In this document: piece by piece, positions 3,120-62,832 of the stretch
How the letters are laid out: the number at the start of each line of letters is the position of its first letter
Numbering within the stretch: position 1 is the first letter of the stretch
Source: Candidatus Omnitrophota bacterium
GTDB lineage: Bacteria; Omnitrophota; Omnitrophia; Omnitrophales; Aquincolibacteriaceae
Assembly: GCA_016930235.1 (NCBI GenBank)
Contig: JAFGHI010000015.1
Span: 4,218 to 68,217 of the forward strand
Direction of reading: 5' to 3'
DNA length: 64,000 nucleotides
Notes under the pieces: generated by a model
Database searches by the model: none
What the model saw: the letters and a program-made list of their open reading frames with translations, nothing else
What the model was told of the DNA's origin: nothing
Translations under genes and position numbers: made by a program

Positions 3120-3731
3120 TTATCTCTCATCCTGGGCAATGACGCCACCAATCCCTAACAGACTTCTTACCTTGTCAATAAGGATATCACTAAGAAAAGG
3201 TTTGCCCATACAATCTGAGACACCTGCCGCTAAAATATCCTCGCGTTTTCCTTTATTGGCAAGTGATGTTATAGCGAGAACAGGGATATCCCTTGTCTGT
3301 GGATTTTCCCTGATTTTTCTGCACACCTCAAACCCGTTCATCCCCGGAATCACAAAATCAAGCATAATGAGATCCGGATGCCACCCTTCCCCTAAGAGAG
3401 TTGCATGATAACCGTTTTCTTCCGTCCGGACTTCAACTCCGAGCTCACCTTTTAATAAATCACGCATAATTTCAAGCAAATCCTTTTCATCTTCGACCAC
3501 CAGGACCCTAAAATGGCCTGGGATGAGATCCCATGAAACGGATCGATCCTCTAAGTGTTTTTTTAAAAAATTCTCTACCATCGGCCTCGAGAAACGCCGG
3601 TGACCGCCTAAGACCTCAAAAGAAGCTATCTTCCCCTCCTTTAACCACTGAAAAACATCTTCCTGCGTAACTTGGCACATCTGGGCAAGATCATAAGGTG
3701 AATAAATACTCTTTTTTAAAAAAGGTTCCAT
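3120..3731 (-). CDS. Response regulator with N-terminal excisionase/MerR-type HTH and C-terminal receiver (REC) domain
   Basis: N-terminus YDLAQMCQVTQEDVFQWLKEGKIASF...GGHRRF (HTH_17-like). The C-terminal half has REC signatures VLVVEDE...IMLDFVIPGMNGFEV...IPVLAITS. Confidence 0.8.
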   Translation of the reverse strand: MEPFLKKSIYSPYDLAQMCQVTQEDVFQWLKEGKIASFEVLGGHRRFSRPMVENFLKKHLEDRSVSWDLIPGHFRVLVVEDEKDLLEIMRDLLKGELGVEVRTEENGYHATLLGEGWHPDLIMLDFVIPGMNGFEVCRKIRENPQTRDIPVLAITSLANKGKREDILAAGVSDCMGKPFLSDILIDKVRSLLGIGGVIAQDER

Positions 3732-5507: not shown

Positions 5508-5876
5508 CTATTCAGGTGATTTTTTTGATTCAATTGACCGCACAAGACTTTTGACACGTTCCAACTCGAGAGGCTTTCTCAAACAAGCAATGGCTCCTAA
5601 CCCAAGGACTTCGCGTTCTTTGTTGGGCGGCATATATCCAGACATAATCGCTACAGGTGTGTTTCGAATGGCCTTGATTCTTTCAAAAACCTCCCGGCCT
5701 TCCATCTTGGGCATCAAAACATCCAAAAAAATGAGGTCATAGGCCTTCTCTTTGATTTTTTCAAGAGCTTCTTCGCCTCCAAGCGCAATATCAACCTCAT
5801 GATTTTCCTCGATCAAAATATCGCGGAACTCTTCGCAGATAAGCTTTTCATCATCGACAATCAATATCGTGGCCAT
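5508..5876 (-). CDS. Single-domain response regulator (CheY-like receiver)
   Basis: ILIVDDE...DLIFLDVLMPKMEG...PVAIMSGY. Start chosen at MATILIV. Confidence 0.8.
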   Translation of the reverse strand: MATILIVDDEKLICEEFRDILIEENHEVDIALGGEEALEKIKEKAYDLIFLDVLMPKMEGREVFERIKAIRNTPVAIMSGYMPPNKEREVLGLGAIACLRKPLELERVKSLVRSIESKKSPE

Positions 5877-5911
5877 TCTTGGGGTCTCCTTACACAAGCT
5901 TTCTTGAGAAA

Positions 5912-14303: not shown

Positions 14304-17300
14304 TCATCTTTGAAGCTGAGACCCTAAGTCGGATTGCCGTGTTTCCTGAGAACTAATAGGGCCGCCCCATCGTCCTTGTTGAGGTGGAATCGACAAGTTT
14401 TCAGAATCAATTGCAAACTGTTTTCCCTCAAGGAAATAAGCCTGTTTCTTCAATCGATTCTCCCATTCCAGGAACCGGGCTTCTTGCTTCCTTTGATCCT
14501 CAAACATCGTTTTCCGCATCCGGTCGAGATCTCCTTCAGCTTTTCTCAAAGCTGTCCATTCCTGCTGAACCTGCTGCTGCATTTGCCGCAATTCTTTCTC
14601 CCGCTCAGCAATCGCGGTAAATTTCCGCTGCAATTCTTCTTCACTATGCTGAACCGCATTGGTTCTATTTTTTTCTTCTTCCTGCCAGCGCATTTTATCG
14701 TGTTCGAGCCTATTCTTAGCAGAAAGAAGTTCTTGTTTTTCTTTTTCGATTTCACTCCTTTTAGCCAGCAGTTCGTCTCTTAGATTTTTTTGAGAATCGC
14801 TAAAACCCGCCACTTCCCGTTCGAACCGGTCTCTTTCTTCTTGGAGGGCAATCATTTTTTGTTTCAAATCACTTTGATCAAGGCTAAATTGTCTTTTCTC
14901 CTTTTCCAGGGTAATCCTTTCTTGACGTGCTTGCTCAGATTCTTGGAGCATTTGTTCTTTACGCCCGTCAAGCTCTTTGGCCCCCTGCTTCAAGATGGCC
15001 TGTCCTTGCTCCATGGATTGTTCTTTCTCGCGAATCCGATTCTCCCATTCCAGCTTTTTCTGCTCCCAATCCATTAATTTCCTTTCAAAGGCCTGGAAAC
15101 GTTCTTCCATCTCCTGCTCATGCAACCGCATATCCTCTTCACGAGCAGCTAGCTGTTGTTTCTTCTGGTTCATCTCCTGTTCAAGGATATCCAATTCCTG
15201 CCTCTGCCGAAGGGCGTCTTCCTTCCATTCGACTTGGGTATTGTGTAACTTATCCCTCTGAACCCTGAGCTGCTCTTCACGTTCTTGGAGATTCTGTCCC
15301 ATCCTTACGAGACCTTGCTTCTCTTCAAGAAAGGCATTGTAATTTTTTTCAAAATCCGTTTTCGCAACATCAAAAGCTTCTTTTCTTTCATTAAACTGTG
15401 AAATCTCTTGAGCAATCGAATTTTGCTTTTCCTGAAGCAATTGGTTCTTTCGGGCCCATTCTTCCTGAATCTGAGCCAAAGCGGACTTATCTTCATCAAA
15501 CTGTTTGCGTTCCTGTTCGAGATCAACCCGCTTTTTCTCCATATCCCTCTCAGATTCCTTAAACGCCGCCAACCGCCTGATAAATGCCTCCCGTTCAATC
15601 CTGAAAGCCTCGCCATCTTCCTCTAATTTCTGTTCTCGTGTGGCAAGGATTCTCTTTTCACGTTCAATGTCAGCCTTAGATGCATCCAGTTCTTTAACGA
15701 ACTTCTGTTTTTCCGTTTCAAATATCTGCTTTTCTTCATTCAAATAAGAAGACGCGCGGATAAAGGCCTGCTCTTTTTCAGAAACAGACCGGATTCTTTC
15801 ATCAAGATTAGCCTTTTCTTTAAGGATACTACTCTCCAGGGCCTCGAATTCCCTCTTCCTTTGATTGGTCTTCTCTTCCTCTTGGTTAAGCTCCATCCGT
15901 TTTCTGGTGACGAGTTCCTGCATCTGATTGAGCTTGGTCTCTTCTGCTTGGACAATCTGTTCCCTTTCGGCTAAGGACTCCGCCTTTTGGCGTAAAGCAA
16001 GCTCTTCTCCGTTCAATTCCTCACGATAGCGGTCTAATCCTTTCTTTTGCGATTCGATGTCCGAACGCAAATCCTGAAGCTGTTTGGCTTCATCCCGAAT
16101 CCGGCCTGCACGTTCATCCAAGCTCTGTCTCGTTGCATCGAGCGCATTGCGAATCCTATTCTTTTCATCGTTAAAGGCTCCCAGATCTTCAGCTAACTTA
16201 AGTTTCTCATCCTTTAACGCCTCTTCACGGGTCACAGTTTCTGTTTCAAACTGAACGCGCTTATTCTCCCAGTCTTCACGCTGTTGCCGGAAATCCTTCA
16301 ACTCCTTAAAAAACATGGCCCGAGCTTCTTCAAGCGCACCCCGCTCCTGATTAAGATCTTCCAACTGAACCTGTCTGTCCTTTTCCCACTGTTCTTTCTC
16401 GCGAGAAAATTCAGCCCACTGATTGTCCAGTTCTTCCGAGCTCAAAAGAATCTGTTCTTCAGCTCCCCAGCGCGCACGTTGTTCCTCATAATTTTCAATC
16501 TCAGCCATCAATTGCTGCTTGCGATCCATAAGATTTGATATCGTTTGTGCAAGCTCTTCTTTCTCATCCCCAAACGATCTTTTCATTTCCTCCAATTGTC
16601 TTTCCCTTTGCGCCAATTCTTCCTCTTTTTCATCCAAGGCCGATTGACGGGATTGAATATCGGTCTGAGCATCATAAATCCGCTGCCGTTCCTCATCCAA
16701 AGCCTTTTGCTGTTTTTCGAAAATCTTAAACCGCTCTTCAAGCTCGGCACCCTGTCCATCGATGCTGCCTTCTTGATGAGTCAACTTCGCAAGCTGTTTC
16801 TTTAAGTATTCCTCTTTCTCAACGATGGCTTGGACTTTTCCGACAAGATCGCTTTCGATTTTTGCCTTTTTCTTTTCCCATGAAGCTTTCTCTTCCCGAA
16901 ATGTCTTCTCTTGTTCTCCAAGTTCAGAAGCCTTATTTTCGAGAACCTCCATCCTGGCTTCGACAGTAAGCTGGCGGTCTGCGATTTCTTTTTCTTGTTC
17001 GCTTGAAAGCTGTGTTTCGCGTGTCGATAGTTCTCTTAATCGAGAAACAAGTTCCTCCTCTTTGCCCTTTAAGGTTTCCCAATTGCTTTGTCTTTCTTCA
17101 AGCGCTTCTCTCGCCCGCGTATACGCTTCGCGCTCTTCAGTGAGCTGAATCTCCTGCTCCGACAAAGCTTCCTTAAGTTCAGCCACCATTTCTTTGTCTT
17201 TGTCCAGAACATCGAGCCGGGCATTGAGTTCTGCTCTTTCTTTCTCTAGCTTCTGGAAGCTTTCCTTTAATCTTTGTTCGATACCGTCTTTTTGAACTTC

Positions 17301-18239
17301 CCAATCAAACCGGCGCTGAGCCAATTCCTGCCTTTCCTTTTCAATCTCATCATTACGGACATTTAAAAATTCGATTTTCTGTTCCCATTCTTTTTTAAGA
17401 GTCTCCGCCGCATTAAGCTTTTGTTTTAATTCCTCGGACCGCCGCCTCAGCATCTGCTCCTGCTCCTGCAAATCCTCCTTTTTACCCGAACGGCTCAGGA
17501 GCTCAGTGCGCCTTCCGGCCAATTCCATCTTTTCCTGCTCGAGACTTCTGCGTTCACGGGTTAAACGGTCCTCAATGGCCCTTAACTCCCTTTCTTTTTG
17601 TTCGAGTTGACTCTGGCCGCTTGCCATGCCGCGATCCTGCTCATAACTGACTTCGGACATTTGCTTTCTTAAATCAGCAAGCGTCTGTTTCAGATTTTCA
17701 ATCATTAAGTTTCGATCGTGTAATTCATTCGTCAGCCGATCGATTTGAGTCTGCTGATCCTTTTGAGCACCCTGGCCTTGACGTTTTTCGATCACCGCCC
17801 TTAAATCATTCTCGAGCTTTTTCTTAAGTCCTTCGAGTTTCATCTTCTCTTCTTCGATGGCAAGCCGCTGATTCTGCTCAAGATCCTGCATTCTCTCCTC
17901 AAATTCCTTTTCCCGCTGCGCTAGAGCATCTGACTGAGCCTTCTTTTCCCCTACCCATGCTTCACGCTCCTGCTGAAACTTTTCTATTTTATCTAAGAGC
18001 GTTCGTTTGATTTCTTCAAGGCGGGCTTCCTTCTTATCCAAGAGCTGAATCTGGTTATTCCGGTCTTCCGTCCAGCGTCGTTGAGCGGCTTCAAATTGAG
18101 CGATTTCCTGCGCAAAACCGTAGTCGGCGTTTGACCCTTCTTGAGCCATCGAATTAAGAGTGTAAGCAAAGCACAGAAGAAAAGCGATGTGTCCAATAAC
18201 AATCGTTCGGGTGAGAGACTTTTCTACTATACGGTTCAT
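14304..18239 (-). CDS. Giant (1311 aa) membrane-anchored coiled-coil protein with degenerate W-E-x-K/R repeats
   Basis: N-terminal hydrophobic anchor IVIGHIAFLLCFAYTL. The rest is almost entirely E/K/R/Q/L heptad-like sequence. Recurring modules: KEWEQKIEF, FDWEVQKDG, SNWETLKGK, ASWEKKKAK, EQWEKDRQV, EDWENKRVQ, MDWEQKKLEWENRIRE, LEWENRLKK. No nucleotide-binding motif. Confidence 0.7.
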   Translation of the reverse strand: MNRIVEKSLTRTIVIGHIAFLLCFAYTLNSMAQEGSNADYGFAQEIAQFEAAQRRWTEDRNNQIQLLDKKEARLEEIKRTLLDKIEKFQQEREAWVGEKKAQSDALAQREKEFEERMQDLEQNQRLAIEEEKMKLEGLKKKLENDLRAVIEKRQGQGAQKDQQTQIDRLTNELHDRNLMIENLKQTLADLRKQMSEVSYEQDRGMASGQSQLEQKERELRAIEDRLTRERRSLEQEKMELAGRRTELLSRSGKKEDLQEQEQMLRRRSEELKQKLNAAETLKKEWEQKIEFLNVRNDEIEKERQELAQRRFDWEVQKDGIEQRLKESFQKLEKERAELNARLDVLDKDKEMVAELKEALSEQEIQLTEEREAYTRAREALEERQSNWETLKGKEEELVSRLRELSTRETQLSSEQEKEIADRQLTVEARMEVLENKASELGEQEKTFREEKASWEKKKAKIESDLVGKVQAIVEKEEYLKKQLAKLTHQEGSIDGQGAELEERFKIFEKQQKALDEERQRIYDAQTDIQSRQSALDEKEEELAQRERQLEEMKRSFGDEKEELAQTISNLMDRKQQLMAEIENYEEQRARWGAEEQILLSSEELDNQWAEFSREKEQWEKDRQVQLEDLNQERGALEEARAMFFKELKDFRQQREDWENKRVQFETETVTREEALKDEKLKLAEDLGAFNDEKNRIRNALDATRQSLDERAGRIRDEAKQLQDLRSDIESQKKGLDRYREELNGEELALRQKAESLAEREQIVQAEETKLNQMQELVTRKRMELNQEEEKTNQRKREFEALESSILKEKANLDERIRSVSEKEQAFIRASSYLNEEKQIFETEKQKFVKELDASKADIEREKRILATREQKLEEDGEAFRIEREAFIRRLAAFKESERDMEKKRVDLEQERKQFDEDKSALAQIQEEWARKNQLLQEKQNSIAQEISQFNERKEAFDVAKTDFEKNYNAFLEEKQGLVRMGQNLQEREEQLRVQRDKLHNTQVEWKEDALRQRQELDILEQEMNQKKQQLAAREEDMRLHEQEMEERFQAFERKLMDWEQKKLEWENRIREKEQSMEQGQAILKQGAKELDGRKEQMLQESEQARQERITLEKEKRQFSLDQSDLKQKMIALQEERDRFEREVAGFSDSQKNLRDELLAKRSEIEKEKQELLSAKNRLEHDKMRWQEEEKNRTNAVQHSEEELQRKFTAIAEREKELRQMQQQVQQEWTALRKAEGDLDRMRKTMFEDQRKQEARFLEWENRLKKQAYFLEGKQFAIDSENLSIPPQQGRWGGPISSQETRQSDLGSQLQR

Positions 18240-33096: not shown

Positions 33097-33312
33097 TCAA
33101 CGTTGAGCGTAACTGCTTAAACAGGAAGGACATAGGCAATCGGAATATTGCTCTGCCAGGCGAGTTAAGACCTCTTTCGATAAGGAGGATTGAGAACACC
33201 AACAGGGCATTGGGCTCTCATCTTGGCAAGAAAATTCACCAAGACACCTGGGACACTTCTTTTTTTTACCCATTCCGGTTTCCCCAGGCCGATCTTTTAT
33301 AATCTCTTCCAC
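33097..33312 (-). CDS. Small cysteine-rich protein (CWC-type, 8 Cys)
   Basis: 71 aa with CPRC...C..ESPMPCWC...C.CPSC spacing. Overlaps the end of the ABC ATPase gene by 16 nt, as the last gene of the uptake operon. Confidence 0.45.
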   Translation of the reverse strand: MEEIIKDRPGETGMGKKKKCPRCLGEFSCQDESPMPCWCSQSSLSKEVLTRLAEQYSDCLCPSCLSSYAQR

Positions 33313-34073
33313 GGGATCACGTAAAATTCCTGATCAAAGTGTCCGTAGCGGGCATTGATGCCGTAGCCTTCTTTCAAGTTGTCCGGAGACAAAACATCGG
33401 CAGCGGACCCGGAAGCCAGGATTTTGCCTTCCCGCAAAAGATAAAGCCGGTCGCAAAAACGGGCGGCCAGGGTCAAATCATGCAGCACCACCATCACCCC
33501 GGACCCTCGAAACGCAACGTCCTTCAACAATTGCATGACTTGGATCTGATGATTGGGGTCCAATCCCGCGACGGGTTCATCGGCCAAGATCATTTCTGAA
33601 TTCCCCGCCAAAACACGGGCAAACATTACGAGGGCTTTTTCGCCCCCTGCCAAATGATCCATCGGGCGGTCCGCCAAATGCAACACATCCGATTTTTTCA
33701 TCGCATTGTAAATGGCCTCGTAATCAATTTTCCGAAGGTCCTGCCAGGGCAAAAGATGCGGAATTCTTCCCAGGGCCACGACCCTTTGGGCCGTTAACGA
33801 CCAGGAAACAGACGCCCCTTGCGGGAGATAGGAAAAATATTGGGCAAGCCGGCGTCTATGGATTTCCGACAAAGACTGTCCTTTAACTTCAATCCTCCCT
33901 TTCTGAAAAGGAAGAAACCGAAGAAGCGTCCGCATCAAGGTCGATTTCCCCGCTCCGTTGGGGCCGATCAGGCCGATCAACTCTCCCCGGGGAAGATCCA
34001 TATTCACCTTGCTTAGGACAAGTTTCTTGTCGAGCGAAACATCCAAATCCCGAATCTGAACAAAATCTTTCAT
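33297..34073 (-). CDS. ABC transporter ATP-binding protein (BtuD/FecE-like, iron-complex/cobalamin uptake type)
   Basis: Walker A GPNGAGKST, signature LAGGEKALVMFARVL, Walker B ILADEP. 258 aa. Confidence 0.85.
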   Translation of the reverse strand: MKDFVQIRDLDVSLDKKLVLSKVNMDLPRGELIGLIGPNGAGKSTLMRTLLRFLPFQKGRIEVKGQSLSEIHRRRLAQYFSYLPQGASVSWSLTAQRVVALGRIPHLLPWQDLRKIDYEAIYNAMKKSDVLHLADRPMDHLAGGEKALVMFARVLAGNSEMILADEPVAGLDPNHQIQVMQLLKDVAFRGSGVMVVLHDLTLAARFCDRLYLLREGKILASGSAADVLSPDNLKEGYGINARYGHFDQEFYVIPWKRL

Positions 34074-35089
34074 CAGGATACGTTCCTCCGCATTTTAAAG
34101 ATAAGGGCCAGGAAAAATGGGGCCCCGATTAAGGACGTCAGGACCCCGAGCTTTAATTCCGTGCCGACCGAAAAATATCTGACGAACAAATCCGCCCAAA
34201 GAACAAGGACCGCGCCGCCCACTGCACTTATTCCCAGCAGTTTCCCGGGCTCATGTTTGACAAGGGGCCTGAACAAATGAGGAACCATCAACCCGACAAA
34301 CACCACACTCCCGCAAACAGCCGTCACGCCTCCGACAGCCAGGGCCGTCCCTAAAATAATCCGGAACCGGACCCGCTGAATGGGAATCCCTAAACTCATG
34401 GCCGCTTCTTCCCCGAGACTCAAGGCATTCAGTGCACGGCCGTCCCACAAAAGAAGTAAACATCCCAACAAAACAAAGGGAGCAACTAAAGTTAGATGAT
34501 CAAAACTGCGGTCGGTCAAAGACCCCATCTGCCAGAAAACAATTTCAAGCGCCGCATAAGGATCTTTGGAAAGATTGAGCACCAGAGACGTTCCGGCAAA
34601 GGCCAGGGTATTGATTGCGATACCCGCCAGGATAAGTGTCTGGACACTGGCCATGTACCCGGCAAAAAGATAAAGAATCAAAACCGTAAGAAAAGCACCC
34701 GCCATTCCCCCCAGCGGCAACGCCAGCGAAAAGGAAGAAGCCAACCCCGAGTAAATTACGAGGACGGCCCCCAAAACAGCCCCTCCATTCACCCCCAAAA
34801 CACCGGGCTCGGCCAGAGGATTACGTAATAATCCCTGCATCGACGCCCCTGCAAGCCCTAACGACGCCCCCAGGAAAACGGCCAATAAACTCCGGGGCAT
34901 CCGAATATCCCAAAGAATGACCACCGCCTCGGAACTTTTTCCGTGAACAATGTCGAGTGCCGTGTCCCAGAGAGAAATCTCCGAAGCCCCGGCATTGAGG
35001 GAAATCAAAAAACTCAGAAGCAAGAGAATACTCATTGAGAAAAAGAGAAAAAAGCCGGAGAATTTTGATCCAACCGCAGGTTGCTTCAT
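34073..35089 (-). CDS. FecCD-family ABC permease (BtuC-like)
   Basis: 338 aa, about 9-10 TM helices, glycine-rich. Layout typical of BtuC/FepD permeases. Stop/start overlap with the ATPase gene. Confidence 0.8.
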   Translation of the reverse strand: MKQPAVGSKFSGFFLFFSMSILLLLSFLISLNAGASEISLWDTALDIVHGKSSEAVVILWDIRMPRSLLAVFLGASLGLAGASMQGLLRNPLAEPGVLGVNGGAVLGAVLVIYSGLASSFSLALPLGGMAGAFLTVLILYLFAGYMASVQTLILAGIAINTLAFAGTSLVLNLSKDPYAALEIVFWQMGSLTDRSFDHLTLVAPFVLLGCLLLLWDGRALNALSLGEEAAMSLGIPIQRVRFRIILGTALAVGGVTAVCGSVVFVGLMVPHLFRPLVKHEPGKLLGISAVGGAVLVLWADLFVRYFSVGTELKLGVLTSLIGAPFFLALIFKMRRNVS

Positions 35090-35106
35090 GTCTTATCCCT
35101 CAACCG

Positions 35107-35976
35107 TTACCTTGAAATTCCCGATAATGCCCCTGAAATCTTTTCGACCGCCTCGACCGACCTTGGAGATCCGCAATTGAGCAAGCAGGCCGGAAGCTCA
35201 ATCACTTTAACTCCCGGCAAAGCTTTACGGATCGCCGGATGATTGAGGATATCACGTCTCTCGGTCCGCGTGTGGCGCCAAACATCCGACAAAATAATGA
35301 GGTCTGGTTGTTGGACAATCAAGGTTTCCACAGACATCAATTGATGCCCCTTGGCCCCCGTCCGGACGGCAATATTCTCCGCACCCGCCTCCGTCAAAAT
35401 CGAATGCTCAAAGGTATCTTTTCCCGGAACGCTCCCGCGGATCCCCCAGAAAACAGCCGACCGGCCGCTCTGTGGCCGAGCAATATGTCCCAGCCGTTCA
35501 TTGATTTCACGGATGATTTCCTCGCCCCGTTCTTTTTCCTGAAGGACCTCGGCCATTTGCCGGATCATGTCCCGAATCTCATCGAAATTCTTGGGGATAG
35601 GGACCGACACGACCCGAACGCCTAATTTCTCCAGAAACTGAATGGTCTGCCGCCGCGTGAAAGGCCCGGCAAAAACCAAATCGGGTTTCAAAACCATGAT
35701 CTCCTCGGCATCACCGCGAATCATCGGGATCCCTTTGACCTCGTCCGTGATGGGAGAAAAGACCTGGTCCTTTGAATAACGTGTAATCGCCACGATCCGT
35801 TCCCGATCGGCAAGCCGGATGAGGAGTTCATCGGAACAAAAATTCGCAGAAATAATCCGGGACGGTTTCAGTACCGTTTCTTCTTGGGAGGCAATCTCAA
35901 GAGACTGCGCCGAGACAATGTCCCTTCCCGAGAGAGCAAACAAAACCAGGAAGAAAAAAAACCAAACCCTTAGCAT
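35107..35976 (-). CDS. Periplasmic substrate-binding protein of the uptake system (BtuF-like)
   Basis: Signal peptide MLRVWFFFFLVLFALSGRDIVSA, then a class III SBP-like layout. Start set at MLRV. The ORF-track extension overlaps the receptor gene. Confidence 0.65.
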   Translation of the reverse strand: MLRVWFFFFLVLFALSGRDIVSAQSLEIASQEETVLKPSRIISANFCSDELLIRLADRERIVAITRYSKDQVFSPITDEVKGIPMIRGDAEEIMVLKPDLVFAGPFTRRQTIQFLEKLGVRVVSVPIPKNFDEIRDMIRQMAEVLQEKERGEEIIREINERLGHIARPQSGRSAVFWGIRGSVPGKDTFEHSILTEAGAENIAVRTGAKGHQLMSVETLIVQQPDLIILSDVWRHTRTERRDILNHPAIRKALPGVKVIELPACLLNCGSPRSVEAVEKISGALSGISR

Positions 35977-36002
35977 ACCAACCGCCTCCGGCTTTGAAAC
36001 AG

Positions 36003-38273
36003 TTAAAATTCCCAGCGTACCCCACATTGGTATTCCCGCGGAGCTCCGGGCACAACAAAGGTATACGTTCCATCGGGAAGGACCGTCGCACCGCCCCAAG
36101 CCGCTGGGAAGACTGTCGCATCCACAGCACGGGAATAATACTTGTTATTAAAAACGTTGTTCACCTTAAAATAAACCTCGAAATTTCTCCAGGAATAGGA
36201 AACGAGAAAATCCCAAACCGAATAGGCCTTGATTTGATGGCCCGCCCCGCCGGTCGCATCCAAGGTTGCCTGAGCGGTCGACTCATAAGCCAGCACGTGT
36301 TGGTCCCCGGTATAAATCCCATTGAGGGACAATTTTAAACCGTCATAAGGTTCTCCCAAACGGACCAAGGGATAAAGCGTCGTTCCCCAGGTAAAACGGT
36401 GTTCCGGGATTTGCCCCAAGTCCCGGCCGTCGATGAGACTCCCTCCCTGGTCGGTTTCCCGCACGTAAGCATCCGTGAGCGTATAAGACCCGTAAAGTGA
36501 AATCTCGTCGACTGGCTTGACGTCCAATCGCGTCTCAATCCCCGAACGCCTGCTTTTTCCGATATTAATATTCTGTCCGAAAGGCGCATTGACCGTCACC
36601 GAAGTAGAGTCCCAAACAATCTCATCCTTTAAATCAATCAGAAAGAAACTGCATTTGAAAAGCCCCATCTCTTTCGGTAAACGAATCCGGGTACCGACTT
36701 CGTAACTATCCGAGACCTCGGGACGAAGACTTGTCGAAATAGTCCCGGAGAAAGGAGACAATTCACTGATCGTCGGCACACGAAACCCCTGGCTGTAATT
36801 GCCGTAAAGATCCGTCCAAGAAAGGGGTTTGATAATCAGACCGGTTGACCAACTCGCTTCATCCCACCGGCGGCTGATATTCTGGGTCGGCATCATGGCA
36901 TCCGAGGCATTCAAGCGATATTGGTCGAGCCTCATCCCAACATGCGCGGTCACCCGTTGGGCGATCTCTCCGGTCTGGCGCCAGTAGAGTGCCCAGTTTC
37001 TCGGGTCCGAGCTCCTGTCGGTTTCGCGCGGACTGTTTTCAACGACATTTCCTCCGAAGGCATCCTGTTCCAATCCGTAATTGGAGGCGTTACGAAACTC
37101 CATCCCCAGGGTTGTTTGGTTGTGATACCAGCCCCACTCGTCCTCATAAGCAAGCTGCCAGACAAGATCGGTCGCCCTTGATTTTGTCGTCACCAGATCC
37201 GTATCGGGATTAAAAGCACCGTCGGCGAACGTAAGCGATGTCGTGTAAAAGTGAGCGAGATTGACCCGCCAGGAAGCCAAGATCGAGGCCAAAACACGGT
37301 GGTCCCAAAAATATTTATTGGCCTCCATTTGAAGGATTGTCATCCGGTAATCCCGGCCATCCAAGGGCTTTAAGGTCATTTCTTCATTGATCTGATACAA
37401 ATCGTAAGGCAGCGCCCCCGGATTGGAAACCGCATCATCCACGTGCTTCAACCCGAACCGAAAGTTCCCCTGGTCGTCGGGAAGTTCATAAGCGGTCTTG
37501 ATATTAAAGGAAGTAATCCGGTATTCCCCATTACTGCGGAAACCGTCCCCTAATTTACGGCTGCTGTTGAAATAGTAGGTCCACTTTCCCGCCAAGGGCG
37601 TTATTTTATCCTGAAGCGTCCCGCTAAATCCGTTATAGAATTGAATGCCCCGGTTGCTTGAGAATTCAAAACCTCCGAAAAGGCTCAGACGCTTTTCACT
37701 CGGCCGGCGCGTCGTCAAATGGACCACTCCGGCAAAGGCACCGCTCCCAAAAATAGGCGAAGCCGAACCGCGGTCAATTTGGATCGATTCAAGATCGCTC
37801 ATATCGATCAAGGGATAAATCACATCATCCCCGTCCACTTCATTGATACGGACCCCGTCCAAAAGATGGACGACCGCGCTCCCTTCCGAAAAACCCCGGA
37901 GACTGAACGTGCGGTCGACCCCGTTTCCGACCTGGTCATAAAAAAGGGCGCCCTCCACATCCTCGATGGACCCTTGATAATCACGCGGATGATAGGCATG
38001 AACTTCTTCGCCTTCGCGGCGCGTGACATTGGCGGGAATGTAACTTATATTGGCAGGAACATCGGCAAATGGGACTTTGAAACAAGGAAGCCGTGAAGCC
38101 ACCACCGTCACCTGATCATAGGTTAACACCCGTGATTCATCGGTCTTCAACTCGTCTGTAACTTCTGGAGTTTCTGTTGGGTTCGGTGAAGGAACCTCAG
38201 CAAAAACCGGGTACGACACACTCAAAAAAACCAAAAGCAAAAACTTACTGACTTGAAGCAACATCCTTTCCAT
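36003..38273 (-). CDS. TonB-dependent outer-membrane receptor (BtuB-like)
   Basis: Signal peptide MERMLLQVSKFLLLVFLSVSYPVFA with AAAGGAGG RBS. Plug domain, 22-strand barrel. C-terminal ...GVRWEF aromatic terminus. Preceded by cobalamin-riboswitch-like leader. Confidence 0.85.
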   Translation of the reverse strand: MERMLLQVSKFLLLVFLSVSYPVFAEVPSPNPTETPEVTDELKTDESRVLTYDQVTVVASRLPCFKVPFADVPANISYIPANVTRREGEEVHAYHPRDYQGSIEDVEGALFYDQVGNGVDRTFSLRGFSEGSAVVHLLDGVRINEVDGDDVIYPLIDMSDLESIQIDRGSASPIFGSGAFAGVVHLTTRRPSEKRLSLFGGFEFSSNRGIQFYNGFSGTLQDKITPLAGKWTYYFNSSRKLGDGFRSNGEYRITSFNIKTAYELPDDQGNFRFGLKHVDDAVSNPGALPYDLYQINEEMTLKPLDGRDYRMTILQMEANKYFWDHRVLASILASWRVNLAHFYTTSLTFADGAFNPDTDLVTTKSRATDLVWQLAYEDEWGWYHNQTTLGMEFRNASNYGLEQDAFGGNVVENSPRETDRSSDPRNWALYWRQTGEIAQRVTAHVGMRLDQYRLNASDAMMPTQNISRRWDEASWSTGLIIKPLSWTDLYGNYSQGFRVPTISELSPFSGTISTSLRPEVSDSYEVGTRIRLPKEMGLFKCSFFLIDLKDEIVWDSTSVTVNAPFGQNINIGKSRRSGIETRLDVKPVDEISLYGSYTLTDAYVRETDQGGSLIDGRDLGQIPEHRFTWGTTLYPLVRLGEPYDGLKLSLNGIYTGDQHVLAYESTAQATLDATGGAGHQIKAYSVWDFLVSYSWRNFEVYFKVNNVFNNKYYSRAVDATVFPAAWGGATVLPDGTYTFVVPGAPREYQCGVRWEF

Positions 38274-38494
38274 CTCTCCTCCTTTACCCGCGTAAAGAGA
38301 CCCTAGGGGTTCTAGGATCTGTTTCCTTGAAAAGAGCGAGATCTTCTGGCTTGTGGCAACAGTCGCAATCACCTACTTGCAGCACCTTCCCAACAAAATA
38401 AGTTAAAAGTAAAAAGTCAAAAATTAAAACTATCGAAAATCATTTTCTTAACCCGTAACTCGCTTTTGACTTTTGATTTATTACTTCTAACTTT

Positions 38495-38575
38495 TAAGTC
38501 AGTGGTCTTCGGCTGCTTTCGTTCCACGTACAGCTGCGGGGCAGCGGCGGCTCATCCGCCTTCCCTCCACTCTCA
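38495..38575 (-). promoter_or_regulatory. Second, compact cobalamin-riboswitch-like aptamer (copy 2) in the receptor leader
   Basis: Minus RNA GAGUGGAGGGAAGGCGGAUGAGCCGCCGCUGCCCCGCAGCUGUACGUGGAACGAAAGCAGCCGAAGACCACUGAC. Contains AGGGAAG, GCUGCCCCGCAGCUGUA (core GCC-CCCGC-ACUGU), a B12-box-like AGCCGAAGACC and CCACUG. Shares the CCGCCGCUG...ACGAAAGC...ACCACUG backbone with copy 1. Confidence 0.45.
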
Positions 38576-38595
38576 AGTTTTGATTGTGAACGAAC

Positions 38596-38646
38596 AAAAA
38601 AAATCCCTTTGAGCAAGTTCCGAGGAGAATACGCTGCTCAAAGGGA
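38596..38646 (-). terminator. Intrinsic terminator (probable riboswitch expression platform)
   Basis: Minus RNA UCCCUUUGAGCA-19 nt loop-UGCUCAAAGGGA (12-bp stem) followed by UUUUUUUU. About 55 nt downstream of the B12 box of copy 1. Confidence 0.7.
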
Positions 38647-38699
38647 AAACACTTCCTAAGCTTTTTTCAATCCTCTGCTCGGAGGCTCAATCTTTCATG

Positions 38700-38900
38700 T
38701 TGATGAGGGTAGGTCTTCTGACTGACGAGCGTTCGTATCCTACTTACGAACCTTCCCACCCGCCAAAACTGAGGCAGGCAGTGGTTAATTTCGCTTTCGT
38801 TCTCGTCGACAGCGGCGGCACCGTGGAGTCAATTGCACACAGCAATTGCTCGCTTCCCTATGAAGTTCGAAATCCCTTTCGAACACCCACACCGTTTAAG
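38700..38900 (-). promoter_or_regulatory. Cobalamin (B12) riboswitch-like aptamer (copy 1)
   Basis: Minus RNA contains, in canonical order: AUAGGGAAGCGAGC, GGUGCCGCCGCUGUCGA, ACCACUGCC, GGUGGGAAGG, and the B12 box AGUCAGAAGACCUACC (consensus AGYCMGGAGACCKGCC, 2 mismatches). No ORF on either strand. Confidence 0.6.
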
Positions 38901-38923
38901 AAAGAACATTCAATAGTGGAGTC

Positions 38924-46090: not shown

Positions 46091-46294
46091 GTGGGGGAAA
46101 AATTGAAACCGTTATACACCTGTTCGAGCTGTCAGTGGTCGGGGGATGAAACCCATTTTATCACCAAAATCCTCTCGATCATGTACCGCCCCAAGCACGA
46201 AAATATCCAGGCCTTCAAACAAATCAAGTGTCCCAAGTGTCACAATCTCGTCACGATCATTTTCGAGACCCTTGACGGTCAAGTCGCGAAGTAA
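46091..46294 (+). CDS. Small zinc-ribbon protein (two CxxC pairs). GTG start.
   Basis: 67 aa. CSSCQWSG...CPKCHNLV. GGGGG stretch upstream. Overlaps the surE 3' end by 16 nt, convergent. Could be spurious. Confidence 0.35.
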   Translation: MGEKLKPLYTCSSCQWSGDETHFITKILSIMYRPKHENIQAFKQIKCPKCHNLVTIIFETLDGQVAK

Positions 46295-47064
46295 GACTTC
46301 TCCCCTTCCTTAAATTGTTTCAGCCAGTTCTCGACCGGTTTCATCGCATCATAATCCGTTAAATCGAGTTTCAAAGGCGTAATCGAAATATATTTTTCGA
46401 TAATGGCTTCTTCATCACTCGAGCCGTCCGCATCATCGACTTCAATCTGACCGGCCAGGGTATAAATCTTATCTCCCTCATGAAGACCGTGAGAAATAAA
46501 CTCCTCGATGAACCGGCTGGAGGCCTGTTTGGTCACCCGGATCCCTTTGATTTCATTTCCGGGAACCGGAGGAATATTAATGTTTAACATAATGCCGCGG
46601 GGCAAACTTCCCTGCTCATACCCGGTTGCGATCTTTTTCGCGAGATCAACCCCGACCGAAAAATCGCTGAAAGTCGGGCTGCATAACGACATCGCCACCG
46701 CCGGAATGCGATTGATCAAACTTTCCCGAGCCGCCGAGATAGTTCCCGAATAATAAACGCTGACCCCCGTATTCGTTCCGTGATTGATCCCTGAAATCAC
46801 GAGGTCGGGACGAAAATCAGGGATCTCGGAAAGCGCAAACTTGACACAATCAGCAGGCGTCCCTTCCACTGAAAAATGCCTGAGCCCCGAAATTTCGAAT
46901 TCCTTAATGCGCAATTTCTGGCGTAACGAGATGGAATGGCTTGAAGCCGATTTCTCGTTTTTGGGAGCCACCAAAAGGACCTCCGCGCTCCCTTTTAACC
47001 CTTGGGCCAAGGCCTCAATCCCCGGCGCTTGAATCCCGTCATCATTGGTCAATAATATTTTCAT
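46279..47064 (-). CDS. surE: 5'/3'-nucleotidase SurE
   Basis: MKILLTNDDGIQAPGIEALA...GINHGTN, the SurE metal-binding N-terminus. Confidence 0.9.
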   Translation of the reverse strand: MKILLTNDDGIQAPGIEALAQGLKGSAEVLLVAPKNEKSASSHSISLRQKLRIKEFEISGLRHFSVEGTPADCVKFALSEIPDFRPDLVISGINHGTNTGVSVYYSGTISAARESLINRIPAVAMSLCSPTFSDFSVGVDLAKKIATGYEQGSLPRGIMLNINIPPVPGNEIKGIRVTKQASSRFIEEFISHGLHEGDKIYTLAGQIEVDDADGSSDEEAIIEKYISITPLKLDLTDYDAMKPVENWLKQFKEGEKSYFAT

Positions 47065-47174: not shown

Positions 47175-47558
47175 TCACTGCGGGATCATCATAAAAACAG
47201 TCGCAATAGCGTAATCTCTTTCGTGCGACATCGAAAGCTCGATCTGGCAGCGTTTGGGAACGCCGAAACGTTTTCTCGATTCCTCCGAAAGATAAATGAA
47301 AGGTTTGCCCGTCGGCCGTCTTCTGACCTCAATCTCCCGGAACCGGTAGCGGTGCTCGCGCTTCACTTCAAAGGCCTTCATCGCGGCCTCTTTGGCGGCA
47401 AACCGTGAAGCATAATGTTCGGCCTTCATCCGTTTGGATTCGCAGTAATCCCGCTCGGCCTGGGTAAAAACCCGATGAAGAAACCGGCTTCCGCGGCGCT
47501 TCATGACCCGCTCAACCCTGCGGACGTTGGTAATATCGATCCCTTGGCGGATTTCCAT
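47175..47558 (-). CDS. acpS: Holo-[acyl-carrier-protein] synthase (4'-phosphopantetheinyl transferase)
   Basis: 127 aa. GIDITNVRRVE...FAAKEAAMKA, the AcpS core. Confidence 0.85.
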   Translation of the reverse strand: MEIRQGIDITNVRRVERVMKRRGSRFLHRVFTQAERDYCESKRMKAEHYASRFAAKEAAMKAFEVKREHRYRFREIEVRRRPTGKPFIYLSEESRKRFGVPKRCQIELSMSHERDYAIATVFMMIPQ

Positions 47559-47572
47559 ACGGTCGGATCTTG

Positions 47573-47863
47573 CTAGGTTCGGAACATAAAATAAGCGATG
47601 GCAATGACAATCAGGATGGAAATAATGTAGAAATTATTAAATCGCCAAAAATCACTCACCTTGGCCAAAAGGTTAATGCTGCTCTTCTTACGGTAGGAAA
47701 GAATATCACTTCGAAGATTAAGAGCGTCTTCCTTGCGGAAGCGGATATACGTTCCCCCGATTTTATATGCCCGCAATCTCCTTTGTTTCAAATAATGTTC
47801 GAGCTGCTCCTGATCAATCTCGAGGAATCTTTTGACTTCATCAACCGTTAGCATGTTATTCAT
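47573..47863 (-). CDS. Small membrane protein with N-terminal excisionase-type HTH and C-terminal TM helix
   Basis: LTVDEVKRFLEIDQEQLEHYLKQRRLRAYKIGGTYIRFRKEDA (HTH_17-like), then FYIISILIVIAIAYFMF. Confidence 0.5.
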   Translation of the reverse strand: MNNMLTVDEVKRFLEIDQEQLEHYLKQRRLRAYKIGGTYIRFRKEDALNLRSDILSYRKKSSINLLAKVSDFWRFNNFYIISILIVIAIAYFMFRT

Positions 47864-47981
47864 AATGCGTCTCTCGCTCTCCGCTAAAACCTATCCCGAA
47901 CAGGAAAGAAACCTTCCGCTCCGGAAGTTTCTGCCTGCCCTTGGTAAATAAGACAACAATCTCAAACTGGAAATGGATCGC

Positions 47982-48518
47982 TTAGGCCTTGACGTTCTCT
48001 TCCTGAATCCAGCGGTCCACAGACGCCTTCGAAAAAACCCAGCTGTTATTTTGATACTGGGCCGGGATCTTGCTCTGCTGAGCCCAATCCTCAACGACCT
48101 TGGCTTCCACTTCCAAATACTGAGCGACATCTTTAAGGGTCAGATAAACATCCGGGCTGTCATCCCCAGGGCGCAAATTCATCATCGAAATCTGCCCTTC
48201 AAGGACAGCACCTTCCGTCACACTCAGTTGAGGCGTCGAAATGTTCCCCCGAATAAGGGCGGGCGCGATCACGGACAAACTCTTCGTGGCTGCAATATCC
48301 CCCGTGATTTTCCCGGCGACAATAATCCGGTCCCCTTCAATGTTGGCTTTGACCTTGGCATTCTCACCAATGGTCAAGTTCCCCCGGGTTTCCAATTTTC
48401 CCTCAAAACTGCCGTTAATGCGTAGATTGACGGGATCCTTAAAGGTAATGGTCCCCTGCATACTCGCATCAACGTCGAGTATCTTTTCTTCCAGATCTCC
48501 ACTCTTTTTCTTCGCCAT
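47982..48518 (-). CDS. Bactofilin-family cytoskeletal protein fused to a C-terminal excisionase-type HTH
   Basis: Beta-helical bactofilin repeats (GNLTIGENAKVKANIEGDRIIVAGKITGDIAA...LEGQISMM), then LTLKDVAQYLEVEAKVVEDWAQQSKIPAQYQNNSWVFSKASVDRWIQ. Confidence 0.7.
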   Translation of the reverse strand: MAKKKSGDLEEKILDVDASMQGTITFKDPVNLRINGSFEGKLETRGNLTIGENAKVKANIEGDRIIVAGKITGDIAATKSLSVIAPALIRGNISTPQLSVTEGAVLEGQISMMNLRPGDDSPDVYLTLKDVAQYLEVEAKVVEDWAQQSKIPAQYQNNSWVFSKASVDRWIQEENVKA

Positions 48519-48693
48519 GGAAGAATCCTCCTTTATTCCTCGTTTGCCCGACTTAAAATGGTAATTTTTTGATTGTTAAAAAAGGGCGCTTCATTATCCC
48601 ATAATTGATCGAAGAGTAAAGTAAAAAAGGCGGTTTGGACGGGATAACGGAAACGTTGAAGATTTGCTCAGGCTCCGGTAAAATCTTATAGCT

Positions 48694-61950: not shown

Positions 61951-62832
61951 TTAGGAGCTGTAAACCAACGCCGCCAATCCCTTGTCCAACAATGTCTGAT
62001 TGATGTAGGTCTTCCCCGCCCAAATATCTGCCAGATACCGATCATATTTATCGGATTTTGAAGTGGTTATCAGGATTTCTTTGCCGGGTTTGAGCTTGCC
62101 CTGAAGAAAACTTTTGGCCTTACGTCCCGCCGGTTCTGTAAGTTCGGGCGTATCGATCCCGCGAAGCCTGAGTTTCTGGTGCGTAAAATAATTCGCGTTT
62201 AAGGAAACTTTCGCCCACACCGTATCTCCGTCAATCACCCGCTCAATCTCGGCCTTATAGGTATAAGAAGACATCCGGACTTCATATTTCCTGCCTGGCG
62301 GTAAATTGTGGTAGACCTCAAATCCCAAATCAGCAATCCACCTTGTCCCCGATCGGAAGATCCCGTACTCCCCTATCTTCCCTTTCTTCGGAAGGAGACA
62401 CGCTAAAATGTTTTCCTCGTCTTTGCCCGCTTTCAACTGGCGGATTTTTGCGCGAAGAACGCGCTTACTCCAGCCCTTCGCTGCCGCCTGTTTTGTCAAA
62501 CGCTCTCTTAATGCCGGATCATTCACGGTAAGCAACGCTTCATAGTGTCCCCATTTCATTTTTCCGTCCGGACGGAAAAATGGATATGCGCGGGCGAATT
62601 CAAGGCAATAGTAGAGATATGTTTTCTTGAAATTTAAGTCACGGGCCAATCGCACCAGCAAAAAGGAACCCTTCGGCGCACGTTTTTGATACTTCAGGAT
62701 ATACCGGTCAATCGCCCGGCCCATGTCCCAATTCACCTGCAGCCTTGTCTTCTCGATACGCGATTTACCTGCGGTAGATAAACGTTTGAGCCGGCTGATA
62801 AGCTTTGGGTAGGCGGATAAGGTAGATGTCAT
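61951..62832 (-). CDS. Fusion protein: YhcG/DUF1016 N-terminal-like helical domain + C-terminal staphylococcal-nuclease (SNase/thermonuclease) domain
   Basis: N-terminus KTRLQVNWDMGRAIDRYILKYQ...YYCLEFARAYPFF. C-terminus IDGDTVWAKV...LRLRGIDTPE...DKYDRYLADIW...NQTLLDKGLA (SNase catalytic and Ca-binding pattern). Confidence 0.6.
   Translation of the reverse strand: MTSTLSAYPKLISRLKRLSTAGKSRIEKTRLQVNWDMGRAIDRYILKYQKRAPKGSFLLVRLARDLNFKKTYLYYCLEFARAYPFFRPDGKMKWGHYEALLTVNDPALRERLTKQAAAKGWSKRVLRAKIRQLKAGKDEENILACLLPKKGKIGEYGIFRSGTRWIADLGFEVYHNLPPGRKYEVRMSSYTYKAEIERVIDGDTVWAKVSLNANYFTHQKLRLRGIDTPELTEPAGRKAKSFLQGKLKPGKEILITTSKSDKYDRYLADIWAGKTYINQTLLDKGLAALVYSS

Follow-up and report, generated by a model that had tools for sequence, protein, structure and literature searches.

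A bactofilin fused to a winged helix-turn-helix domain and its tail-anchored neighbour: a conserved gene pair and putative cytoskeletal module of Omnitrophota

Introduction

Bactofilins are widespread, but clients have been identified for them in just a few species. An N-terminal membrane-targeting peptide (MTS) is typical of these proteins, if not strictly defining; its consensus is MFSKKKK, in which F2 and K4/K7 are critical, and bactofilin assembly normally requires membrane binding (PMC12448750). The links described so far between bactofilins and DNA are either indirect (PadC-ParB, Myxococcus) or regulatory (BacR, Bacillus, 2026). In Myxococcus xanthus a bactofilin polymer positions chromosomal DNA-protein complexes through the BacNOP-PadC-ParB/ParA system (PMC5703909). 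In Bacillus subtilis BacR (YhbD, DUF4004) is encoded beside two bactofilins (BacE/BacF), binds DNA and is recruited by them to the membrane; it moves to the nucleoid on bactofilin depletion or vancomycin stress, and its DNA binding competes with bactofilin binding (PMC13649987).

Winged helix-turn-helix (wHTH) proteins also attach chromosomes to the envelope. RacA has a monomeric wHTH, oligomerisation raises its affinity for DNA, and the substitution R19A abolishes DNA binding (PMC4914108). The substitution R18A does likewise in RicO, and the amphipathic helix of RocS can be replaced by unrelated transmembrane (TM) domains (bioRxiv 10.64898/2026.03.06.710092).

Here we analyse a locus in which a bactofilin carries an HTH domain of its own, within a window (the whole stretch of DNA analysed) of 64,000 nucleotides from an Omnitrophota genome. 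Omnitrophota are mostly ultra-small and uncultured, and we know of no cytoskeletal or chromosome-organisation data for them. A search of the literature on bactofilins with excisionase, Omnitrophota and domain architecture found no published description of the bactofilin-HTH architecture.

Results

A bactofilin with a C-terminal winged HTH

The fusion gene and its parts are as follows.

47982..48518, minus strand: gene for the bactofilin-wHTH fusion (178 aa), at the head of the module (open reading frame list; Pfam Bactofilin and HTH_17)
48483..48518, minus strand: N-terminal tail, residues 1-12, MAKKKSGDLEEK, predicted to be disordered, basic at its start
48189..48482, minus strand: bactofilin β-helix core, residues 13-110 (Pfam, Foldseek)
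48147..48188, minus strand: flexible linker, residues 111-124 (about 14 aa), of low pLDDT and poor conservation
47988..48146, minus strand: C-terminal MerR/excisionase-type winged HTH, residues 125-177, topology β-α1-α2-β-β-α3

Both domains named in a preliminary description of this DNA score above their Pfam cutoffs, Bactofilin (PF04519) at residues 13-110 with 83.6 bits against 27.9, covering positions 2-97 of the 98 in the profile, and HTH_17 (PF12728) at residues 125-173 with 39.8 bits against 27. The AF2 model of the protein has a pLDDT of 84 overall and of 85-96 across residues 21-110, falling below 50 in the N-terminal tail (residues 1-11) and in the linker (residues 115-121). Compared by Foldseek, the core in this model resembles BacA (2n3d, TM 0.83) and TtBac (6rib, TM 0.78) and is predicted to adopt the right-handed β-helix fold; the C-terminal domain has the winged-helix fold. 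The residue of the polymerisation interface (F130 in BacA, F105 in TtBac) aligns to L106 of the fusion, a position held by I/L/V/M in all 120 close relatives and by Phe in 16 of 22 divergent members, and judged from this alignment the interface is intact.

The fusion has 2,241 homologs, of which the best 120 are all two-domain proteins of about 177 aa with 70-80% identity, and the architecture is retained in members down to 26% identity. The linker, of 13-15 aa among close relatives, ranges from 5 to 22 aa in the divergent ones. The preliminary description had allowed for an artefact of assembly or frameshift, which is ruled out by these more than 2,000 full-length homologs.

A tail-anchored winged HTH protein

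Downstream lies a second, smaller HTH gene.

47573..47863, minus strand: tail-anchored wHTH membrane protein, 96 aa (open reading frame list; HTH_17; TM segment)
47711..47854, minus strand: its wHTH domain, residues 4-51, from per-position composition in 120 homologs
47582..47644, minus strand: juxtamembrane aromatic motif DFWRFNNFYI and C-terminal TM helix (residues about 74-94), with a basic linker before it

HTH_17 is matched at residues 4-46 with 28.6 bits, barely above the cutoff of 27. The hydrophobic segment at the C-terminus (Kyte-Doolittle mean of 2.0 over 19 residues from residue 76) is kept in all 120 homologs compared, and the earlier reading of this protein as an HTH followed by a single TM helix therefore stands. 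The family counts 407 homologs of about 97 aa. Its wing is invariant and basic (Y33-K-I-G-G-T-Y-x-R41-F-R43-K44 across 120 homologs, with K34, R41, R43 and K44 invariant), and K23, at the position equivalent to RacA Arg19, is Lys in 87 of the 120. Some 20 residues, basic and with a mean charge of +3, join the HTH to the TM segment, and the aromatic motif survives in divergent partners, for example as KDFFYFNSFYII and DFWKYSDIYII. The partner keeps a canonical basic wing of the DNA-binding type, and putatively binds DNA.

Gene order and distribution

The HTH-TM gene lies directly downstream of the bactofilin-HTH gene, on the same strand, in 83 of 83 close loci and in four of six divergent lineages (L085, L086, L088 and L090), and the pair persists while the flanking genes vary. 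Hundreds of species have retained it, with identities of 60-80%. This conserved adjacency supports the proposal, made before, that the HTH-TM protein is a genuine functional partner of the bactofilin-HTH protein. In a fifth divergent lineage, L089, the partner is absent; L089 is also the sole divergent lineage with a basic bactofilin HTH (+4).

Two further genes follow the pair in the window.

47175..47558, minus strand: acpS (holo-ACP synthase; Pfam ACPS), beginning 14 nt past the partner gene
46279..47064, minus strand: surE (Pfam SurE), downstream in roughly every second close locus

Although acpS is co-oriented with the pair in all 83 close loci, unrelated genes take its place in L085, L086, L088 and L090, and the linkage is limited to the close clade; that of surE is loose.

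The survey of bactofilin-HTH fusions suggested earlier also gave 511 matching stretches among species-representative genomes; those with a name all come from Omnitrophota, a phylum of about 700 species in GTDB R232. This search used alignment A1, the diverse alignment A2 having no sufficiently conserved stretch. In more than 80 species the pair keeps a stable synteny on the chromosome, and the 64-kb window holds housekeeping genes with no integrase or recombinase, which shows that the context is chromosomal and not that of a mobile element. These observations are best explained if the pair forms a cytoskeletal module of two genes that has been kept throughout the phylum.

Two database identities were considered and rejected. 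The NCBIfam models for MADS1 (NF047737; 42.6 and 23.2 bits against a cutoff of 80) and excisionase (TIGR01764; 20-23 bits against 28.8) both score below cutoff, and neither a MADS1 defence nor an excisionase identity fits the absence of a mobile-element context. For this last reason the term 'excisionase-type', used in the preliminary description, is apt for the fold and not for function.

The third HTH of the window

The same HTH had also been assigned to a third architecture.

3120..3731, minus strand: HTH-REC response regulator, 203 aa, 44 kb from the module and outside it

All three open reading frames were confirmed at their coordinates. PF12728 is assigned to the bactofilin and to the TM protein; in the HTH-REC protein, whose REC domain (residues 76-188) scores 74.9 bits, the N-terminal HTH_17 reaches only 21.0 bits (E=4e-4) against the cutoff of 27. 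Precomputed PF12728 and PF00072 are carried by several homologs of this protein, and a small family of this architecture exists. By BLASTP the bactofilin HTH gives no alignment with that of the TM protein and 24% identity (E=1e-3) with that of the HTH-REC protein, and an HMM of each HTH family barely detects the other two (10-16 bits). The three are thus not one HTH; by sequence comparison they are related at the superfamily level only, and the HTH-REC gene is unlinked to the bactofilin module. Pairwise similarity ranging from none to 24% rules out recent duplication. A window-wide enrichment of this HTH domain is also ruled out, the domain being absent from every other open reading frame of the window.

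The N-terminus of the fusion

The fusion begins MAKKK, and the canonical MTS with Phe2 is absent. Residue 2 is Ala or Gly in 111 of 120 close relatives, and a hydrophobic residue occurs at positions 2-4 in one of the 120. We considered that an MTS-like N-terminus and an HTH-TM partner might be mutually exclusive, and rejected this as a clean pattern: L087 and L089 fit it, but L088 has both an MTS-like N-terminus (MFKRKPK) and the partner, and in L085 and L090 a Phe3 in the bactofilin occurs together with the partner gene.

A model for the pair, and its rivals

We propose that the β-helical core would polymerise into non-polar filaments, on which the winged HTHs, carried by flexible linkers of about 14 residues, would be displayed pairwise at tail-to-tail junctions roughly every 6 nm. 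The membrane-targeting peptide usual in bactofilins, with its Phe, is missing here, and we therefore propose further that membrane attachment would be supplied by the partner, a tail-anchored protein of the inner membrane with its wHTH in the cytoplasm, through a presumed physical interaction. The membrane-bound filament would then be a multivalent tether between the envelope and chromosomal DNA, gripped at a specific site or over the nucleoid surface, a role comparable to those of RacA-DivIVA, RocS/RicO and BacNOP-PadC-ParB elsewhere. The reading that we prefer, tentatively and at somewhat less than even odds, is of a filament scaffold under constitutive expression that its tail-anchored partner holds at the membrane and that tethers DNA. 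It divides into a link from scaffold to membrane, which is probable, and one from scaffold to chromosome, of which we say only perhaps; DNA binding by either HTH and the cellular role of the module are what we infer from the data below. In favour of a tether, the fusion gene of the most divergent lineage lies two genes from one for a ParA/MinD-like ATPase, with an actin-like Volactin gene also nearby. Nothing here supports the label 'ParA-independent' in the preliminary description. Against a tether, a partner linker of some 20 residues means that bound DNA must lie against the membrane.

A profile of the fusion-family HTH gives significant matches in the PDB only to RacA (E=6.7e-4) and BldC (E=2e-3), although a search with the single sequence finds RacA with E=0.45 only. 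By structure the best match is BldC, and the domain with which pSK1 Par binds its centromere is also among the neighbours; the pattern A-K-x-V-x-x-W-x-x-x-x-x-x-P-A is shared with RacA. Basic residues are kept at K/R129, K/R140, K148-150, R154 and K/R164, and the equivalent of RacA Lys15 is K/R in 119 of 120 relatives. However, position 144, which corresponds to Arg19 of RacA and to an Arg of BldC, is Glu or Asp in 116 of 120 close relatives and in 13 of 22 divergent members, the preceding Glu143 is invariant in the 120 close relatives, and the domain is net acidic, with a mean charge of -1.8 in close relatives and values down to -10 in divergent ones. Because of this acidic pair and net charge, DNA binding by the bactofilin HTH is doubtful. 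Set against the RacA/RocS/RicO family, the domain has the sequence similarity and lacks the Lys15/Arg19 pair, and the coiled-coil self-association domain that follows the wHTH as a hallmark of that family is absent in both fusion and partner. The filament-to-DNA tether of the preliminary description thus retains its structural analogues, RacA and pSK1 Par, and loses ground on the acidic residue and the charge; nor did a motif search of upstream regions find a candidate DNA target site, which likewise counts against it.

The main alternative, to which we give somewhat less credence, is that the acidic bactofilin wHTH is a protein adaptor, docking on the basic wing or juxtamembrane linker of the partner, or on some other protein, and not on DNA. 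The pair would then be a filament with a dedicated membrane anchor, and its clients might be, for example, envelope or lipid-synthesis enzymes. The loss of the essential Arg to an acidic residue beside an invariant E143 in a negatively charged domain fits such docking, and the invariant basic wing and +3 linker of the partner offer the complementary charge; the strict adjacency of the two genes, the absence of the partner from L089, where alone among divergent lineages the HTH is basic, and co-transcription with acpS in the main clade, which hints at an envelope or lipid-synthesis link, agree with it. The same fold is used by CbpM and RppC to bind protein, BacR binds bactofilins through a surface predicted near its HTH in competition with DNA (PMC13649987), and a bactofilin without a canonical MTS would be short of the membrane contact that assembly normally needs (PMC12448750). 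Several of the basic surface positions conserved in the bactofilin HTH are nevertheless typical of phosphate contacts, the proteins closest to it in sequence are true DNA binders, and the partner retains all the hallmarks of a wHTH that binds DNA, superfluous if its task were anchoring alone. Cytosine, moreover, can be read by a Glu of the recognition helix, as in bHLH proteins.

The signals around the fusion gene bear on a further alternative.

48593..48620, minus strand: σ70-type promoter-like site, TTTACT-16-TGnGATAAT, upstream of the fusion gene
48526..48534, minus strand: ribosome-binding site (RBS) AAAGGAGGA, strong, 7 nt before the ATG of the fusion gene
47913..47927, minus strand: terminator-like hairpin with a T-rich tract after it, within the spacer of 118 nt that separates fusion and partner genes

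A comparable -35/-10 pair recurs upstream in related loci (TTGACA/CTTTACA near -73, GATAAT near -50), far above shuffles, and AGGAGG/AAGGAG is enriched at -10 to -16. Across 79 upstream regions only promoter and RBS are enriched, with no conserved palindrome or direct-repeat operator. A promoter so near consensus, together with a strong RBS, suggests that the gene is expressed constitutively and at a high level; with the lack of a shared operator, both fit the abundant structural protein of the tether model. The hairpin of the spacer may act as an attenuator here; the spacer is typically 60-90 nt in other loci, hairpins are not consistently conserved there, and we reject the idea that a terminator or attenuator is conserved between fusion and partner genes. 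No structured RNA was found within the locus. A stem-loop in the 5'-UTR of the fusion gene occurs in one subclade only.

These signals count against a regulatory switch, in which the pair would be a fused or membrane-tethered version of BacR, with one or both HTHs serving as transcription factors, their access to DNA gated by polymerisation or membrane sequestration, and the expression of genes (among them the operon of the pair, and acpS) coupled to scaffold assembly state or envelope stress. The precedent is BacR itself in B. subtilis (PMC13649987), BldC is a transcription factor, and the partner resembles a membrane-tethered one. But the conserved promoter lacks an operator beside it and points to constitutive expression, and the recognition-helix positions, conserved in the close clade, vary widely among divergent members. 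Nor is there a match to DUF4004 (PF13171) by Pfam in any of the three proteins, and the BacR HTH motif, with only its 22 residues as query, matches DUF4004 and is not scored as HTH_17 or MerR. We regard a switch as unlikely.

An incidental origin, with the HTH_17 domains as excisionase remnants and the adjacency without functional meaning, draws on the frequency of HTH_17 in excisionases and prophage regulators and on top NCBIfam matches to MADS1 and excisionase models, all below cutoff, and is effectively refuted by the synteny and conservation of the pair in a housekeeping region free of integrase and recombinase, so that we give it hardly any weight.

Discussion

If the tether model is correct, the fusion would be the first case of a DNA-binding domain built into a cytoskeletal polymer, which would serve as a scaffold that resembles a kinetochore or organises the nucleoid. 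It would also be 'Rosetta-stone' evidence that the bactofilin-HTH partnerships of BacR type in Firmicutes are ancient and general. If the HTH serves only as a protein adaptor, the module would still be a new mode of bactofilin membrane anchoring. As a simple two-protein system that can be expressed heterologously, it lends itself to the study of DNA tethering by a bactofilin, or of how a bactofilin reaches the membrane without an MTS, and it is a natural experiment in the use of a DNA-binding fold with an acidic recognition helix. It also gives a first cell-biological handle on the cytoskeleton and chromosome organisation of Omnitrophota. The wider proposition, that the phylum uses a chromosome-envelope tether made of a bactofilin filament with a RacA-like DNA-binding array and fastened to the membrane by a tail-anchored wHTH protein, is one we put forward as a speculation with the odds against it.

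Comparison with known systems

A close likeness is to RacA-DivIVA of B. subtilis sporulation, in which a MerR-type winged HTH, a disordered linker and a self-associating domain are combined as in the fusion, and which attaches to the membrane via a scaffold, as proposed here. The oligomeriser of RacA is however a coiled coil and not a bactofilin β-helix, its HTH is N-terminal where that of the fusion is C-terminal, and its essential Arg19 is Glu or Asp in the fusion family; RacA is also a sporulation protein of Firmicutes, whereas the fusion appears to be a constitutively promoted gene found phylum-wide in Omnitrophota. The partner is likened by its architecture, a MerR-type wHTH with a C-terminal membrane anchor, to the origin-membrane tethers RocS (S. 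pneumoniae) and RicO (S. aureus), from which it differs in having a true TM helix, no coiled coil, a linker of only about 20 residues and a bactofilin-HTH gene always beside it. The single-protein plasmid partition factor pSK1 Par resembles the module in joining a wHTH centromere-binding domain, a self-association region and a membrane-binding helix.

Among single-domain proteins, BldC of Streptomyces and the Xis-type wHTH proteins lack the second domain of the fusion; BldC has Arg where the fusion family has Glu, and no recombinase context is present at the fusion locus. In M. xanthus the bactofilin reaches DNA indirectly, via the adaptor PadC and ParB-parS, whereas here a domain of DNA-binding type is covalently fused to the bactofilin. 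BacR, finally, is a separate, soluble DUF4004 protein of 200 aa, while of the two HTHs in Omnitrophota one is part of the bactofilin itself and the second is anchored by a TM helix.

The fusion gene and its family

The arrangement claimed in the preliminary description, a bactofilin fused to an HTH beside an HTH-TM protein, is confirmed by the ORFs and their Pfam matches.

47982..48518, minus strand, bactofilin-HTH fusion, 178 aa
47573..47863, minus strand, HTH-TM protein, 96 aa
3120..3731, minus strand, HTH-REC protein, 203 aa, 44 kb from the other two ORFs

The 178-aa protein matches Bactofilin at residues 13-110 (83.6 bits, nearly the whole profile) and HTH_17 at residues 125-173 (39.8 bits against a cutoff of 27), and HTH_17 in the 96-aa protein (residues 4-46, 28.6 bits) is barely over the cutoff. 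The further claim that the same HTH recurs in three architectures is not supported, as the three are related at the superfamily level only. The 203-aa protein, with REC at 76-188, has an HTH_17 match of 21 bits, under the cutoff. NCBIfam gives no above-threshold match, the models reached below threshold being MADS1, excisionase and BldC. The HTH-REC protein, which has no linkage to the gene pair, is one of a small family sharing its architecture. At 1.8 kb from it, a REC-domain protein stands alone (5508..5897, minus strand); the interval holds gltX (of the glutamyl/glutaminyl-tRNA synthetase family) and a gene of the HIT family, and no histidine kinase was seen near either REC gene.

The fusion is genuine and not an artefact. 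A search of 5.8 billion proteins gives 2,241 homologs, the best 120 of which all contain both domains (about 177 aa, 70-80% identity), their named records being Candidatus Omnitrophica/Omnitrophota. About 25 representatives in a 50%-identity clustered library match over both domains (26-60% identity) and retain the architecture with a variable linker, and the remaining matches are to the bactofilin core alone. Three proteins of 134-154 aa (P0245, P0249, P0261), 65-69% identical to the core with the match limited to residues ~4-119, could represent paralogues without the HTH or gene calls that were cut short. When GTDB species-representative genomes were scanned with two peptide patterns, 511 stretches were found to encode a relative, all named records being Omnitrophota; as about 700 species are assigned to this phylum in the GTDB release used (bioRxiv 10.64898/2026.06.07.730766), the gene is close to universal in it. 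Named divergent members bear the label 'PVC group bacterium'.

An AlphaFold2 model built from a 41-sequence alignment (mean pLDDT 84) has four segments.

residues 1-11, disordered N-terminal tail
residues 13-110, β-helix
residues about 112-124, disordered linker
residues 125-177, β-α-α-β-β-α winged HTH (wHTH)

By Foldseek the β-helix matches BacA (2n3d, TM 0.83) and Thermus bactofilin (6rib), and the C-terminal domain matches BldC, RacA-DNA, RdfS, pSK1 Par, CbpM and Rpp; RacA (E=6.7e-4) and BldC (E=2e-3) are the only significant PDB relatives of the family HTH in a profile search. Mutating F130 of BacA or F105 of TtBac blocks polymerisation, and the aligned position, L106 here, is always hydrophobic and is Phe in most divergent members, so that polymerisation of bactofilin-HTH is likely.

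The gene pair and its proposed membrane attachment

The HTH-TM gene lies directly 3' on the same strand, followed by acpS, in all 83 close loci having downstream sequence, with surE next in about half of them; upstream genes are variable. In divergent lineages at 33-42% identity (L085, L086, L088, L090) the partner is retained with its TM helix and aromatic motif, and unrelated genes replace acpS, and hence the conserved unit is the gene pair itself. Two divergent lineages lack the partner: L089, whose HTH is unusually basic, and the most divergent, L087/L091 (26% identity, N-terminus MKFFSQKK), where the genes upstream of it encode a ParA/MinD-like ATPase with an AMPK1_CBM domain, two proteins of about 216 aa lacking annotation and an actin-like Volactin.

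L087 1..4567, bactofilin-HTH cluster
L091 112..3567, bactofilin-HTH cluster

These genes may form a cluster for cytoskeleton and positioning. The suggestion of a ParA-independent device is not supported.

The C-terminal hydrophobic helix of the 96-aa protein follows a basic linker and is kept in 120 of 120 homologs, among which the juxtamembrane motif DFWRFNNFYI is also conserved; these features mark it as a tail-anchored membrane protein with a cytoplasmic HTH. In most bactofilins, membrane binding depends on an N-terminal peptide of the MFSKKKK type, with Phe2 and Lys4/7 as its critical residues, and this binding and polymerisation are mutually reinforcing (PMC12448750). Bactofilin-HTH begins M-A-(K/N)-(K/N)-K, with a hydrophobic residue at positions 2-4 in only one of 120 close relatives, and the dedicated TM partner would be an evident replacement anchor, a role strongly supported by synteny. 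A rule of 'membrane-targeting sequence or partner' fails when N-termini and partner presence are compared among divergent members.

The fusion gene is preceded by a σ70 promoter close to consensus and by a strong RBS, in the window and over 79 related loci, across which no shared operator-like repeat is found. This is more in keeping with an abundant structural protein than with a repressor that regulates itself, and it weighs against a BacR-like regulatory switch, a third option that we consider unlikely. A GC-rich 5'-UTR stem-loop, CACCGAACCGTCCGTCCGGACGGCAACGAAGGAG, lies between promoter and RBS (about -60 to -20 from the bactofilin-HTH start) in a subclade (L026, L027, L029, L036), absent from the window and most other loci, and no structured RNA was found in the bactofilin-HTH locus. 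Between the paired genes, a hairpin resembling a terminator, CTTCCGGAGCGGAAG, precedes a T-rich tract (hairpin at 47913..47927, minus strand) and could keep expression of the partner below that of the filament protein; the hairpin lacks conservation across loci.

Other features of the window

No integrase, parAB, ftsZ or mreB occurs within the 64-kb window, which is ordinary chromosomal housekeeping DNA; with the pair conserved in synteny, this effectively excludes that the pair arose incidentally or from a mobile element. An operon (33297..38372) encoding a TonB-dependent receptor, a periplasmic binding protein, FecCD and an ABC ATPase is preceded by two cobalamin riboswitch aptamers in tandem (38319..38602 and 38691..38905, minus strand; 52 and 62 bits); as the GTG start given for the receptor ORF is overlapped by the proximal aptamer, the true start of this ORF is probably further downstream. 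A DUF1016_N-SNase fusion gene (61951..62832, minus strand) has counterparts, SNase or DUF1016_N genes, near bactofilin-HTH in L085 (5143..5694) and L089 (17..1030), a proximity that is probably coincidental. Upstream of the module on a related Omnitrophota contig (L001 1..2548) is a gene of 11,889 residues, consistent with giant ORFs reported for the phylum. For three large ORFs of the window, Pfam gives no match at E<=1e-5.

14304..18239, minus strand, 1311 aa
18560..21310, minus strand, 916 aa
55981..58233, plus strand, 750 aa

Proposed roles: DNA tether or protein adaptor

RacA requires K15, R19 and R30 for DNA and loses binding in R19A (PMC4914108), and the equivalent R18A inactivates RicO (bioRxiv 10.64898/2026.03.06.710092). 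VQ-R19-W of RacA and VT-R-W of BldC align to V-E143-D144-W of the bactofilin HTH, in which the close family has E143 throughout, Glu or Asp occupies position 144 in 116 of 120 close relatives and 13 of 22 divergent members, and the mean net charge is -1.8. Such acidity makes canonical nonspecific DNA binding questionable, although sequence-specific binding is possible, as glutamate can read cytosine. The domain keeps basic K/R129, K/R140, K148-150, R154 and K/R164, which could contact phosphates. The partner HTH has an invariant canonical wing, Y-K-I-G-G-T-Y-x-R-F-R-K, usually with Lys at the Arg19 position.

The best-supported model, which we hold tentatively, is that the two proteins together make up a bactofilin scaffold attached to the membrane, which would present arrays of wHTH domains and tie DNA to the envelope. 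The filament-DNA tether of the preliminary description is plausible but unproven, and weakened by the acidic recognition helix. In the main rival, which we judge rather unlikely, the acidic HTH would serve as a protein adaptor docking on the basic wing or linker of the partner, giving a filament with its anchor; the complementary charges of this HTH and of the wing and linker, and the use of the wHTH fold for protein binding in CbpM and RppC speak for it, but the candidate phosphate-contact residues persist.

Comparison with known systems

The automatic database annotation of these proteins reads 'polymer-forming cytoskeletal protein' or 'helix-turn-helix domain-containing protein'. Full-text searches find no paper joining bactofilin with excisionase or with Omnitrophota, architecture surveys do not mention the fusion, and bactofilins are absent from the text of the two large genome papers on Omnitrophota. 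Both domains are of well-known kinds; what is new is their covalent fusion, the obligate TM-HTH partner and the phylum-wide conservation. The tethering logic of our model would be analogous to that of RacA-DivIVA, RocS/RicO, pSK1 Par and BacNOP-PadC-ParB, from which the pair differs in having a DNA-binding-type domain fused directly to the polymer.
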